From positions 434,001 through 498,000 of the forward strand of contig VRMN01000002.1 in the NCBI GenBank assembly GCA_008690995.1: a stretch of 64,000 nt of DNA. Direction: 5' to 3'. This DNA is from Porphyridium purpureum (lineage: Eukaryota). Made by a program: the position numbers and the translations under genes. Shown here in pieces: positions 1,935 to 13,869 of this stretch (positions are counted from its first letter, which is position 1; every line of letters starts with the position of its first letter). Below the pieces are notes generated by a model, which had not been told where the DNA came from, made no database searches, and saw nothing but the letters and a program-made list of their open reading frames with translations.

Positions 1935-3392
1935 ATGGGGAAGCAGGTGTTTGACAAGAGCCGCCTGGATGGAGACAACGTGTTTGAAAAGTATGAGCCG
2001 TCCGCGAAGCTCGGACAGGGTTCGTTTGGCACGGTGTTGCTTGTCAAGCAGCGTAGCAACCCGTCGGTGCAACTGGCGTGCAAGACGCTGTCAAAGGCCA
2101 AGATGACAAATGAGACGCACTTGGAGGACGTGCGGACAGAGGTAGAGGTCATGCGCCGCCTGCAGGATAACGAGAACGTCGTGCGGCTGTTTGAGGTGTA
2201 CGAAGATCAGGACTCGGTGCACCTGGTGATGGAACTGTGCTCTGGCGGTGAGCTGTTCGATCGTATCATTGAGAAGGGCCACTACTCGGAGGCGGACGCG
2301 TCCGAGCTCATTCGCATCATGCTCAAGGTCGTGGCGGCATGCCATGCCAAAGGGGTCGTGCATCGTGATCTCAAGCCGGAAAACTTTCTTCTGGACGGGC
2401 CGGATGAGCACGCAAAGCTCAAGGCGACCGACTTTGGCCTTTCGGCACTTGCCACACCGGGTGTTTTGCTAAAGGATCAGGTTGGCACGCCCGTGTACGT
2501 GGCGCCTGAGGTTTTAAGAGGCCATTACAATCACAAGTCTGACATGTGGTCGCTGGGCGTGATTCTGTACATCCTTCTGTGCGGCAGGCCGCCATTCTAT
2601 GGCAGGACAGCCAACGACGAGTTGCGCATGACACTGATAGGCAAGTATGATATGACCAAGGACCCGTGGCCTACAATCAGTGATAGTGCAAAGGAAGTCG
2701 TGCGCCTCTTGATGCGCATGGACTACAACGAACGCCCGGAAGCTGCAGAGCTCCTGACTCACCCGTGGGTCAAGAAATATGGCGTGGCGTCTACGCAGCC
2801 GCTTGTAGCGTCAGTGCGTGAGAGTATGAAGAAGTTTGCCACCATGAGCAAACTGAAAAAGCGGGCGTTGCAATTTATGGCGTCCAATCTGACCGAGGAC
2901 GAGGTGAAGAAAATGCGCCACCTCTTTGAAAAGATTGATACGGACCACAGCGGCAACATTAGCGTGGGGGAGTTTGAGACTGCTATGCGCGCGACGGGTA
3001 ATCAGTTCTCGGACGAGGATATTGTGAATATGGTCAAGGCGTACGACGTGGACGAGAGCGGCGAAATCGATTACAGCGAATTCGTGACGGCAATGACAAA
3101 TATAAACAAGCTGCGGACGGCAGACAACATGGTGAAAGCATTCAAGAAGTTTGACACGGACAATGATGGCACCATCACCGTCACTGAGGTCATGAAGGCA
3201 CTGGAAGATATTCCGAGCGTGGACGAGGAGTACGCGAAGCGCATGATTGCGGAAGCTGACACGAATGGCGACGGGAAGCTGGACCTCGAAGAGTTTATGG
3301 CCATGATGGTTGAGAACGACGAGGACCTCAGCCATGCCGTGGAGAAAGGCCGCGGCCGCCTTAACACAGCAGACCTGCAGCAGTACATGTGA
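1935..3392 (+). CDS. CDPK: Calcium-dependent protein kinase (kinase domain, junction, 4 EF-hands)
   Basis: GQGSFG, ACK, HRDLKPEN, DFG and APE motifs; junction 'MKKFATMSKLKKRALQ'; EF-hand loops DTDHSGNISVGE, DVDESGEIDYSE, DTDNDGTITVTE, DTNGDGKLDLEE. Intronless. Confidence 0.96.
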   Translation: MGKQVFDKSRLDGDNVFEKYEPSAKLGQGSFGTVLLVKQRSNPSVQLACKTLSKAKMTNETHLEDVRTEVEVMRRLQDNENVVRLFEVYEDQDSVHLVMELCSGGELFDRIIEKGHYSEADASELIRIMLKVVAACHAKGVVHRDLKPENFLLDGPDEHAKLKATDFGLSALATPGVLLKDQVGTPVYVAPEVLRGHYNHKSDMWSLGVILYILLCGRPPFYGRTANDELRMTLIGKYDMTKDPWPTISDSAKEVVRLLMRMDYNERPEAAELLTHPWVKKYGVASTQPLVASVRESMKKFATMSKLKKRALQFMASNLTEDEVKKMRHLFEKIDTDHSGNISVGEFETAMRATGNQFSDEDIVNMVKAYDVDESGEIDYSEFVTAMTNINKLRTADNMVKAFKKFDTDNDGTITVTEVMKALEDIPSVDEEYAKRMIAEADTNGDGKLDLEEFMAMMVENDEDLSHAVEKGRGRLNTADLQQYM

Positions 3393-5648: not shown

Positions 5649-6026
5649 ACTGTAAGTGAAGACTAATTCTCGAAAGTATATTTCACCATGTGCTCTGGGC
5701 GCTTGCACGTGGGATCCGAGAAACACAACCACTACTTCAATCGCCTTGTCGCCGAACACGCGTGAGAAATGCATCGTGCACGATCACCAGCGACATGTTT
5801 GCCGTCTGCCTCGCTCATAACACTGCTTCGCCCTAACGCCGATAGTGCATGCCTCCCTTTCACGAGTTTCAGGAACAAATGCTCGGAACCTCGTGATGCG
5901 CGCGCACAAATTCACTGACCGAACACGCGTCGGGACTGTACCTCTTGCAGACCTTGCACGTTTCTCACAAAACCTGCATTTACAGAGTTCATAATGTCTA
6001 ATTTTCCCTCCTCCAAATGACATTTT

Positions 6027-6245
6027 GAGCTATTGGTGTAGTGGTTCTAATGCTGTGCGCTTCCGTTGCGCGCAGCGAATTGCGGATCACGTCAGACTTT
6101 TTCCGAGGGGTTGCGATATCGAGCCACCCCTATGGTGCTGAATCGTTTACGATTTGAGTCTTGTGACGGGCAGTTCAGTTTGTAAGTGCTTTACAACTGG
6201 TCTGTAGACATCTGAAGATCAGGGGTTCAAATCCCCTATAGCTCA
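6027..6245 (+). tRNA. trnQ-UUG: Multi-intron tRNA, best model tRNA-Gln(UUG); introns 6047-6085, 6100-6163, 6167-6209
   Basis: Acceptor stem GAGCTAT/ATAGCTC plus A73; D-arm GTGTAGTGGTT|ATCAC; anticodon stem TCAGA/TCTGA; T-arm AGGGG-TTCAAAT-CCCCT. BHB-guided intron removal gives loop CT-TTG-AA. TTTT at 6255-6258. The tRNA body is clear; the isotype depends on the intron model. Confidence 0.8.
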
Positions 6246-6494
6246 AAGATTTCCTTTTGACTGGGACGGGAGTGAAAAAGTAGACGGGGGAAGATGGAGC
6301 TGCGACTGGAGAGAAGTTTGAATCTTCTTTTTTGGTGCCCAAGATCTACGGCGGCAGTGGTCGGCAGCTTCATGCGTAGAGCTCATGCCCGTGATTCTGA
6401 TTTTACATATCTGATTCTTTCCTTGCTTTTCGTCCTGTTCGGGCATCGGACGGCACTGCAGAAAAGAGTATTGGCTGGACATGACCGAGAGGAC

Positions 6495-9098: not shown

Positions 9099-10652
9099 AT
9101 GGAGTGGGTTGCGAATGCGACAGACGCGCTGATGGCGCCGCTGCCGGCGGTTCCGGACGACGTGTACGCGACCGCGATGTACGTGAGCGAGCAGTGGGGC
9201 GTGGCCATCGCGTATTTGGATAAGGTGGATGTGACGCCGGCCGCGTTGGCTGGCGGCATTGCAAAGCTGTCGGAGCAGTCTGGCGTCAGTGACGCAGAGC
9301 TCCGTCTGCTCGCGTGTCTGCTCGCGGCCTATCCCATCGGCGCCGCGTGGCGCGCGTGCAAGCCGCCCGCGCTCAAGCACCTCATTTCCGTTGCGCTCGG
9401 CTGGTGGATGATGCAGTTCGTCATTGGGTACCAGTGGGTGCATTGTCTTATTCCGTGCCTATTGGCGTACGCCTGTATGGCCATCGTGGGGCCCGGCGCG
9501 CGCCACCTCGTGTTCGCCATCGCGCTCGGCTACTTGGCCGGCGGCCACATTTATCGCATGTACACAGACTACTTGGGCTGGACATTGGACTGGACCATGC
9601 AGATGATGATCATCACGCAAAAACTGTCCGCGTTTGGCTATAATTATTACGACGGCTCCAATCCCAAGGCTTCCGAGCTGCAAAAGTCTCGCGCCTTCTC
9701 AAAGCTGCCGGGCCTGGTACCATTTCTCTCGTACATTTTGTTCCCGGCGAACGTCACGATTGGGCCGTTTTTTGAGTTTTCGGACTACATGACTGTCGTG
9801 GAGGAGGGCTCGACGGGCATGAAGAAGGGCGCCCCGGCGCCGCCCAGCCCGCTGCTGCCCAGCATGTGGCGTTTGCTGCAGGGAATTTTGTTTATGATCA
9901 TTCATAACGGCGTGATGATGTACCTGCCCACATGGGCGATGGTGACCAGTCCACAGTACATGTCTCGCTCGAACGGCAACATTGTGCTGCGGTACGCAAA
10001 GGTATGGGTGTCGCTTCTCGGCTACCGCTTCAAGTACTACTTTGGCTGGAAGATTGCCGAGGGCGCCGCAGTCATGTCCGGGCTTGGGTACAACGGCGCG
10101 GTTCAAACCGAGTCAGGCCAAGTGACGCACCTGTGGAATCGCATCGACACGGTCGATGTGCTTGGTTTTGAGACAGCCCAGTCGTTGCGGGATGCGGCGA
10201 GCACGTGGAACAAGATGACCAACAATTGGCTCAAGGATTATGTGTATGTGCGCACGCCGGAACCATTCAACCTGTACATGACCTATTTCACGTCGGCATT
10301 CTGGCACGGCTTTTACCCTGGGTACTACATGTTCTTCTTGAGCGTCGCATTTGCGACGCAGGTGCACCGCAACTTTCGCCGCTCGATGCGCGGCTACTTC
10401 GTGAGGCCCAAGGACGACCCGAACGCCAAGCTGATCAAGGCCGTATACGACTTGTTTGGCGCGATCACGACCAGCCTCACTGTCAACTACTTTATCCTGT
10501 CCTTTGTTGCGCTCGCGTGGGACTACAGCATCCAGGCGTTCGACAGCTTATACTGGTACGGCCATATCCTTCTAGCTGTCTTGTTTGTCGTGTTTGGCCT
10601 CGGACTGGTTCGGCCTCCAAAGAAGACACCCGTGGAGAAGAAGAGCCAGTAG
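9099..10652 (+). CDS. LPCAT: MBOAT lysophospholipid acyltransferase (LPCAT/ALE1 type)
   Basis: Multi-TM; 'WNKMTNNWLKDYVY' and 'TSAFWHGFYPGYY' (catalytic His); C-terminal KKSQ di-lysine ER signal. Confidence 0.93.
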   Translation: MEWVANATDALMAPLPAVPDDVYATAMYVSEQWGVAIAYLDKVDVTPAALAGGIAKLSEQSGVSDAELRLLACLLAAYPIGAAWRACKPPALKHLISVALGWWMMQFVIGYQWVHCLIPCLLAYACMAIVGPGARHLVFAIALGYLAGGHIYRMYTDYLGWTLDWTMQMMIITQKLSAFGYNYYDGSNPKASELQKSRAFSKLPGLVPFLSYILFPANVTIGPFFEFSDYMTVVEEGSTGMKKGAPAPPSPLLPSMWRLLQGILFMIIHNGVMMYLPTWAMVTSPQYMSRSNGNIVLRYAKVWVSLLGYRFKYYFGWKIAEGAAVMSGLGYNGAVQTESGQVTHLWNRIDTVDVLGFETAQSLRDAASTWNKMTNNWLKDYVYVRTPEPFNLYMTYFTSAFWHGFYPGYYMFFLSVAFATQVHRNFRRSMRGYFVRPKDDPNAKLIKAVYDLFGAITTSLTVNYFILSFVALAWDYSIQAFDSLYWYGHILLAVLFVVFGLGLVRPPKKTPVEKKSQ

Positions 10653-11461: not shown

Positions 11462-11905
11462 ATGGACAGTACGGTGAGCAAGAGGCTTCAGTCGGAGCTC
11501 ATGAGCCTGATGATGGAGAATGTGCCGGGTATCTCGGCTTTTCCAGACGGCGACAGTCTCGAGTCGTGGGTGGCTTCGATTTCAGGCATAGAAAATACTG
11601 CGTACGAAGGGCTCACGTTCAAGCTCTCGCTCAAATTCCCGCACAATTACCCTTACGCCGCGCCCTTGGTGCGGTTCGAGACGCCAATCTTTCATCCAAA
11701 CGTGGATACCAGGGGTAACATCTGCCTAGACATCCTCAAGGACAAGTGGAGCGCAACATACACCGTCCGAACTGTGCTTCTGTCTCTACAGACGCTGCTG
11801 AATGACCCGAACAATGAGTCACCTCTCAATTCTCAGGCTGCCGCCTTGTGGGACAACCAGCGCGCGTATCGCGAAATGGTCAGAAGGACGACCATGGCAG
11901 ACTGA
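11462..11905 (+). CDS. UBE2C: Ubiquitin-conjugating enzyme E2-C (APC/C partner, UBC19/20-like)
   Basis: '[14 protein letters not shown]...GISAFP' and '[21 protein letters not shown]' with the active-site Cys. Confidence 0.93.
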
Positions 11906-13796: not shown

Positions 13797-13869
13797 TGTC
13801 CCCGCACAGATTCGAACTGCGGTCTCGAAATTCAGAGTCTCACGTGCTAACCAGCTACACTACGGGGAC
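13797..13869 (-). tRNA. trnQ-CUG: tRNA-Gln(CUG), intronless, 73 nt
   Basis: Minus strand reads GTCCCCG TA GTGT AGCTGGTTA GCAC G TGAGA CT CTG AA TTTCG AGAC CGCAG TTCGAAT CTGTG CGGGGAC A: a complete cloverleaf. T6 terminator at 13783-13778. Confidence 0.95.

Follow-up and report, generated by a model that had tools for sequence, protein, structure and literature searches.

In a 64,000-nt window of contig VRMN01000002.1 of the red alga Porphyridium purpureum, we identified a locus on the + strand (positions 6027-6245 of the window) that is most probably a functional nuclear tRNA-Gln(UUG) gene, whose single precursor would contain three introns, one of which splits the anticodon and is likely removed before the canonical one. 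We place the probability of this reading at roughly 0.8, and hold the exon structure on which it is built, as proposed by a first, sequence-only reading of this DNA (intron 2 at 6100-6163 and an exon of 3 nt), with the same confidence. The Gln(UUG) identity, which is obtained with either of two registers of intron 2, is firmer and very probably correct, and the locus is a real feature and likely a working gene.

Inspection of the sequence placed all four tRNA arms (4/4) in normal order across 219 nt. Exon 1 (6027-6046, 20 nt) carries the 5' strands of the acceptor and D stems and the D-loop to position 20a, and is followed by intron 1 (6047-6085, 39 nt), which interrupts the D-loop at 20a/21 and contains a 9-bp GC-rich inner hairpin (6052-6076) and a weak bulge-helix-bulge (BHB) motif. 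Exon 2 (6086-6099, 14 nt) covers positions 21-34, its last base being the first base of the anticodon, and intron 2 (6100-6163, 64 nt), with two inner hairpins, then interrupts the anticodon itself at position 34/35. Exon 3 (6164-6166) consists of 3 nt, positions 35-37, that is, the last two anticodon bases and A37. Intron 3 (6167-6209, 43 nt) lies at the canonical 37/38 position and contains a long hairpin, with G6207 able to pair with C32, and exon 4 (6210-6245) supplies positions 38-73, comprising the 3' strand of the anticodon stem, a 5-nt variable loop, the T-arm, the 3' strand of the acceptor stem, and A73. When these four + strand exons were joined, they gave a 73-nt cloverleaf that ARAGORN called as Gln(ttg), retaining the conserved bases of the D- and T-loops and a loop of seven nucleotides of the form Y32-U33-N3-R37, as expected of a class I tRNA. 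The boundaries, motifs and four arms over 219 nt were all found as the sequence-only reading had described them, and its proposals of Gln(UUG) identity, three introns, a 34/35 site and a 3-nt exon are supported by the cloverleaf, by an enumeration of possible readings, by the published tRNA list and by shuffled sequences.

Two other architectures were considered and rejected. A circularly permuted tRNA gene does not agree with exons in normal order and with the lack of a 5' half or D-loop motif downstream, and group I or II self-splicing introns do not agree with introns of only 39-64 nt (against a ribozyme core of several hundred bases) that gave no Rfam intron match. A motif scan for further interrupted tRNAs in the window found none, its four T-arm-like and six A-box-like matches being paired only at the two known genes.

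We enumerated all readings that leave a loop of 7 nt flanked by the 5' and 3' strands of the anticodon stem. None of the eight single-intron readings gave a purine at position 37, and three of the 2,408 two-intron readings passed the BHB filter, namely Gln UUG with A37, UUG with U37 (a slipped register of intron 2) and Thr(AGU) with G37, so that the UUG/A37 reading was the only Gln reading to pass with a purine at 37. Single introns with strict motifs (6100-6205, leaving an 8-nt loop, and 6099-6206, leaving a 6-nt loop) were rejected as products. Among 1,000 dinucleotide shuffles of 6099-6209, an equally good two-intron solution was allowed by two, a figure that is optimistic since the thresholds were taken from the observed motif, and by one with a purine at 37. 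The rebuilt loop was also similar, at six of seven positions, to that of an intronless tRNA-Gln(CUG) gene located 7.6 kb away in the window (13797-13869, - strand, with a T6 run lying 14 nt beyond it); the two genes have G26, A73 and the 5' strand of the D-stem in common, and their acceptor and T stems are not alike.

It is extremely improbable that the locus instead yields another anticodon, or several anticodons by alternative splicing, such as His(GUG) by a cut at 33/34, Thr(AGU) by removal of 6099-6184 and 6189-6209, or Gln(CUG) by use of 6138-6141. The Thr reading passes the filter, and His and Thr genes are also absent from the published tRNA list, in the part of it available (PMC10496412). 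However, the Thr(AGU) reading carries an energy cost of 14 kcal/mol, disrupts the intron hairpins and results in G37, the His(GUG) cut is supported by one of four central pairs, and the Gln(CUG) reading is not among the three that passed. The CUG (via 6138-6141) and GUG loops had been put forward beforehand as alternatives to the UUG loop, and both fail the motif filter. Intron 2 contains CUG and then AA at 6138-6142, as in the loop of the Gln(CUG) paralogue, and no motif supports the use of these bases.

The anticodon-splitting intron 2 has a BHB motif on the + strand with a central helix (6094-6097/6158-6161) of four Watson-Crick pairs out of four, an outer helix (6090-6093/6165-6168) of four pairs, an inner helix of two pairs and two 3-nt bulges, which agrees with the BHB definition given in the available text of 10.64898/2026.10.13.758758 (a central helix of 4 bp, bulges of 3 nt, a minimum of 2 bp in the flanking helices, and a cut after the second bulge base). 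These helices pair tRNA positions 25-32 with the intron's 3' end, the 3-nt exon and the two leading bases of intron 3. Intron 2 was lowest in energy as a relaxed, one-bulge version in the same register, in which the 5' side was relaxed and the 3' bulge kept to the 34/35 register, and the strict two-bulge form lay 5.8 kcal/mol higher; relaxed one-bulge motifs are described as an accepted class for archaeal and algal introns in the available portions of PMC3728597 and 10.64898/2026.10.13.758758. Motifs equalling that of intron 2 are frequent, with 107 on the + strand of the 64-kb window, and the weight of this motif therefore comes from its position. The fold of 6086-6172 was only modestly stable relative to shuffled sequences (z -1.86, 12/200).

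A shift of the intron 2 register by one base deserves attention, as it lies only 1.1 kcal/mol above the 34/35 register. Intron 2 would then be 6101-6162 (at 35/36), the middle exon would be 2 nt (6163-6164), and intron 3 would be 6165-6209, yielding Gln(UUG) with U37. This arrangement passes the filter, with a central helix of 4/4 Watson-Crick pairs and an outer helix of five pairs, and the RNA junction described below is as compatible with a cut before 6163 as with one before 6164. However, its inner helix has one pair only, and its U37 differs from the A37 of the Gln(CUG) paralogue, position 37 being nearly always a purine. We regard the shifted register as improbable, and refer to the 34/35 register with its 3-nt exon in what follows.

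Intron 1 has the weakest motif of the three. Its central helix is fully paired (4/4), but with one Watson-Crick and three G.U pairs, and its flanking helices have one contiguous pair each, continuing after a 1-nt offset as the D-stem and as the 9-bp hairpin. The motif had a pair probability of 0.03 in the isolated precursor and lay about 9 kcal/mol above the best fold. The boundaries of this intron are mainly set by the requirement for a normal D-loop.

The sequence-only reading had described the order of intron removal as obligatory, and the part of this claim that concerns intron 3 was borne out by our computations. In the unspliced RNA, intron 3 was without its outer helix and had a central helix that was only G.U-rich. 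In ensemble computations the anticodon stem had a probability of 0.01-0.03 while intron 2 was present, because the helices of intron 2 occupy positions 25-32; we consider this exclusion the stronger reason for an order of removal. After removal of intron 2, intron 3 formed three of four central pairs, five outer pairs and four inner pairs, the central pairs including the C32:G anticodon-intron pair that had been predicted for this canonical 37/38 intron (C6097:G6207). By computation, the gene thus behaves as a nested pre-tRNA, in which the motif of the last intron is blocked until another intron has been removed. The converse part of the claim did not stand, since with intron 3 removed, intron 2 still retained four central, two outer and two inner pairs, which is the published minimum; in the ensemble the probability of its outer helix was then 0.0. 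Removal of intron 2 before intron 3 is therefore strongly favoured, both by the modelled structure and by the rule in Cyanidioschyzon merolae that the 37/38 intron goes last, but it is not strictly forced.

After removal of intron 2, the isolated RNA favoured a competing hairpin, formed by the leftover outer helix (probability 0.74-0.90), over the anticodon stem (0.08-0.09), and since the gap is 1.4 kcal/mol in isolation, a refolding would be required after ligation. The intron 2 outer helix had a probability of 0.1 with intron 1 present versus 0.65 once intron 1 was gone. Introns 2 and 3 have similar 3' ends (6158-6167 and 6200-6209, 7/10 bases in register), each of which is able to pair with the same stretch of exon 2; it is possible that this likeness is a trace of duplication, or it may offer a route to mis-splicing.

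Both tRNA genes of the window appear in a published P. purpureum table made with tRNAscan-SE 2.0.9, where, in the part available, an entry of 219 nt is named "Lys(TTT)" and one of 73 nt Gln(CTG), on opposite strands (PMC10496412), with 5' ends 7,842 nt apart, an exact match to the window. Among the 30 genes of this list, Lys(TTT) appears once more, as a gene of 91 nt, and Gln(TTG) is absent; there is likewise no entry for Asn, Asp, His, Cys, Thr or Trp, and the list includes (S4d/S6c) a Pro(GGG) gene 106 nt in length, two undetermined genes (113 and 162 nt), and many genes longer than 110 nt (PMC10496412). It is likely that this list hides more miscalled or missed interrupted tRNAs. The split gene had been expected to be missed by standard scanners, which was the case for ARAGORN and Rfam, which miss or miscall it, but not for tRNAscan-SE, which finds all 219 nt and reports them as Lys(UUU). 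On the raw window, ARAGORN called an Ala(ugc) at 6155-6246 by treating intron 3 as arms, a call that we rejected. A search of the window with Rfam at the gathering score found only the Gln(CUG) gene and not the split gene, and at E up to 10 gave a partial tRNA match (6168-6245) together with two chance matches.

A CUG anticodon does not read CAA codons, so a Gln(UUG) gene is needed, and the split gene fills that gap. A check for other Gln(UUG) genes, which the sequence-only reading had recommended, turned up none in the available part of the published list (PMC10496412); as that list is incomplete, another, hidden Gln(UUG) gene is possible.

Acceptance of the published call (PMC10496412) would make the locus a tRNA-Lys(UUU) gene with a D-loop intron and a 107-nt canonical intron (6103-6209), cut by a ruler-type enzyme, which we consider very improbable. 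With the anticodon stem formed, such an intron would have the C32:G pair and a 5-bp outer helix, and this fold lies 2.4 kcal/mol above the best one. However, a Lys(UUU) tRNA needs A37 and this reading leaves U37, the D-arm and loop resemble those of the Gln(CUG) paralogue, and both the intron 2 motif and the RNA junction at 6163/6164 would be left unexplained. Furthermore, another Lys(UUU) gene is already listed, and Gln(UUG) would be missing, in the available part of the list (PMC10496412).

Spliced joints were not found in the eight runs that we searched, none of which is on record as a small-RNA library and whose libraries are poorly suited to tRNA; in the three raw-read runs, depth over the gene was only 0-14 reads, on both strands. 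Unspliced contigs were present in X5 (6071-6297, depth 151 versus 22 for the next gene), X7 (6071-6192, depth 246 versus 17-21) and X9 (6040-6300, depth 17 versus 17), contig depth being a poor measure of expression that cannot rank expression and carries no strand. The lack of coverage of 6027-6070 in X5 and X7 carries no evidential weight. Run X7 is labelled "DNA?", and we read it as RNA from its uneven coverage, which breaks off at 5857, is absent from there up to 6070 and differs by a factor of ten; coverage in X6 is even. Termination at an internal T5 run (6098-6102, + strand), which spans the boundary of exon 2 and intron 2, had been named beforehand as an outcome that would speak against the proposed gene, and was not seen: the X5, X7 and X9 contigs cross this run unbroken, and it is apparently read through. 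In the 3' trailer (6246-6333, + strand), a T4 run (6255-6258) is followed by a T6 run (6328-6333) that is the likely terminator, and the high-depth contigs end at 6297-6310. An AT-rich stretch upstream of the gene (5990-6026, + strand) is a candidate external Pol III promoter, by precedent with C. merolae. A sigma-70 promoter scan, which is not applicable to Pol III, gave no match.

One X7 contig (record 12, 123 nt, depth 47) runs through 6218-6310 and then through 6163-6192 on the + strand, a strand assignment that assumes its coordinates to be read as in the other minus-strand records. In this contig the trailer is thus joined to 6163/6164, where the 3' cut of intron 2 is predicted, and intron 3 has been retained; because of a shared G the junction is ambiguous by 1 nt, and 6310/6163 may equally be 6311/6164. 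This junction suggests that an RNA end existed at the predicted 3' cut of intron 2 and was joined to the end of the trailer by ligation or by a jump of the reverse transcriptase, and a 148-nt circle or an end-to-end product of the cut precursor are possible forms of it. About 10 of the 240 covered positions would count as a match, corresponding to a chance of about 1 in 25, judged post hoc, and the junction comes from one contig of one run and fits both intron 2 registers. A DNA tandem repeat is an unlikely source of it, as depth peaks outside what would be the repeated unit and falls to zero in the intergenic gap.

When two X6 contigs and one X9 contig were compared with the window, strain variants were found at 10 sites within the gene, nine of them intronic and one exonic, with no indels. 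The exonic variant, A21G at 6086, changes the conserved A21 and occurs in one X6 contig only; exons 1 and 4 carried no variant. Six sites are located in intron 2, none of them in its junction helices or bulges, and the intron 1 variant (6062) is located in the hairpin loop. The intron 3 variants at 6170 and 6175 convert G.U to Watson-Crick pairs and strengthen the hairpin from -12.1 to -15.7 kcal/mol, and the variant at 6133 strengthens intron 2; one haplotype weakens the inner hairpins of intron 2 from -21.5 to -14.7 kcal/mol. Depletion of variants was not significant for the exons alone (P=0.10) and gave P=0.02 for exons plus junction bases, a grouping defined post hoc. Double-sided changes were not seen among the X6 and X9 contigs. 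Two metagenome scans for orthologues in other species found none: the exon-4 pattern had 0 matches and the intron-2 pattern matched four loci, none of which was a tRNA.

These observations bear on whether the gene might be decaying or non-productive, its precursor being made but not matured while CAA is read through another, undetected Gln(UUG) gene. Such a state would agree with the lack of spliced reads in the eight runs, the internal T5 run, the A21G change in one haplotype, the incomplete published list, and the seeming abundance of unspliced RNA, as compared with C. merolae precursors that are below northern detection in the available text of PMC3728597. It is nevertheless quite improbable, as the acceptor, T-arm and anticodon stems are intact, exons and junctions are avoided by the variants, three of which make intron helices stronger, and the X7 junction falls at a predicted cut site.

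Multi-intron tRNA genes of other red algae offer the closest parallels to a working split gene. In C. merolae, according to the available text of Soma et al. 2013 (PMC3728597), three genes have three introns, and introns are 11-69 nt long; the P. purpureum gene is like these in being a nuclear gene with as many as three predicted BHB-type introns, in the D-loop and at 37/38, in its AT-rich upstream stretch and in the predicted removal of the 37/38 intron last. Of the 42 C. merolae introns, 17 are located at 37/38, 14 in the D-loop, five in the D-stem, four in the T-loop, and one each in the variable arm and the T-stem, so that, unlike in the P. purpureum gene, introns of the anticodon loop are solely at 37/38 (PMC3728597). 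In addition, the C. merolae motifs mostly form independently and are not nested, according to the authors, whereas those of the P. purpureum gene are interlocked, and the shortest exon among the 17 genes of their Fig. S1 is 5 nt (Glu UUC) versus 3 nt here (PMC3728597). Chondrus crispus (PlantRNA 2.0, 10.1101/2021.12.21.473619) is similar in having a D-loop intron at 20/21 and a 37/38 intron, with splicing observed by RT-PCR, but has a maximum of two introns, only at 20/21, 37/38 and 58/59, as opposed to the three introns here. The multi-intron genes of both species are spliced in vivo (PMC3728597, in its available text; 10.1101/2021.12.21.473619). For C. merolae and C. crispus, the only sites named in the available portion of a 2026 review (PMC13578239) are in the D- and T-loops, and Porphyridium is not mentioned there.

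Nesting itself has archaeal precedents. In Thermoproteales (Sugahara 2007 and Tocchini-Valentini 2009, via the available text of PMC3728597 and PMC3978253), genes have up to three introns, and the last motif forms after other introns have been removed, as we predict here; ARMAN-2 tRNA-Pro(GGG) has two introns in one loop, at 53/54 and 59/60 (PMC3239211, available portion), as the P. purpureum gene has two in its anticodon loop. Both precedents involve an archaeal enzyme and host, unlike a red algal nuclear gene. A Methanothermobacter tRNA-Pro may have introns at 32/33 and 37/38. The non-canonical archaeal positions given in the source texts, as far as available, are 20/21, 22/23, 25/26, 29/30, 30/31, 45/46, 53/54, 56/57 and 59/60 "etc.", with 34/35 not named, and the split junction of Nanoarchaeum equitans Gln(UUG) is at 32/33.

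The group I intron of tRNA-Leu(UAA) is located at position 34/35. This cyanobacterial and plastid intron also splits the anticodon, being placed "within the anticodon region" in the available text of PMC4090602, but it is a self-splicing ribozyme of several hundred bases; intron 2 of the P. purpureum gene has 64 nt and no Rfam match, which argues for protein-dependent splicing. Genes of the Guillardia theta nucleomorph, a eukaryotic genome derived from a red alga, have two or three introns each, at non-canonical sites said to include the anticodon stem-loop, but these introns are 3-24 nt long and most are without a BHB, unlike those described here (PMC4090602, available text). In our literature searches, neither this gene nor an intron removed by endonuclease splicing at 34/35 was found described, slash position labels not being searchable; the claim that 34/35 lacks a precedent is fairly secure where the two curated sets of red algal nuclear genes are concerned, and weak in the case of archaea and nucleomorphs. 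What is new is the anticodon-splitting site and, for a nuclear gene, the pair of introns within a single loop, while three-intron red algal tRNA genes and an archaeal nested order are known.

We propose the following model for the maturation of this tRNA. Pol III would start from the upstream AT-rich element, an external promoter being suggested because intron 1 breaks the A box, and would read through the T5 run and stop at the T6 run near 6330. A tRNA splicing endonuclease and a ligase would remove all three introns, with introns 1 and 2 cut by local motif recognition in archaeal style, possibly in either order. Ligation of U34 to U35 would build the anticodon, and the RNA would refold from the leftover outer helix to the anticodon stem, a change that tertiary folding or base modification may tip, thus placing intron 3 at 37/38 with its C32:G pair. 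Intron 3 would be cut last, as are the 37/38 introns of C. merolae. The fold of intron 2 would hide both the 37/38 site and the site after 6102 at which a mistaken ruler cut would produce a UUU anticodon, and the product would read CAA codons, which are beyond the reach of the intronless Gln(CUG).

A broader hypothesis, to which we give about even odds, is that this is the first nuclear eukaryotic tRNA gene without a genomic anticodon triplet, with endonuclease splicing at 34/35 by way of a 3-nt exon and an interlocked order, in which intron 3 lends bases to the motif of intron 2 and intron 2 hides the stem from the ruler cut that would give a false Lys(UUU), and that more such Porphyridium genes stand behind the miscalled or missing tRNAs. 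The red algal splicing endonuclease is uncharacterised (PMC10485636, available text), and Soma et al. left open, in the available text, whether the enzyme switches between motif and ruler recognition (PMC3728597). As one precursor would need motif and ruler recognition three bases apart, with a defined wrong product for each mode, it may serve as a ready substrate from a cultured alga. The locus also illustrates a type of annotation error, in which an anticodon intron leads tRNAscan-SE to give a wrong amino acid rather than nothing; the P. purpureum tRNA set needs curation, and codon-usage work built on this set is affected (PMC10496412, in the part available).

The genes flanking the tRNA gene are long open frames without apparent introns. 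The frame at 1935-3392 encodes a calcium-dependent protein kinase, most of whose named best relatives of similar length are red algal, and those at 9099-10652 and 11462-11905 we take to be membrane acyltransferase-like and ubiquitin-conjugating-enzyme-like, respectively; none of the three had a link to the tRNA gene. At 5850-6017, low-depth reads (2-7) of X22 and X23 were found only in minus-strand RNA orientation, running away from the tRNA gene. At 6293-6333, within the presumed tRNA trailer, the next mRNA appears to have its start, at about 6293-6298, and the ATG at 6294 is therefore unlikely to be its start codon.
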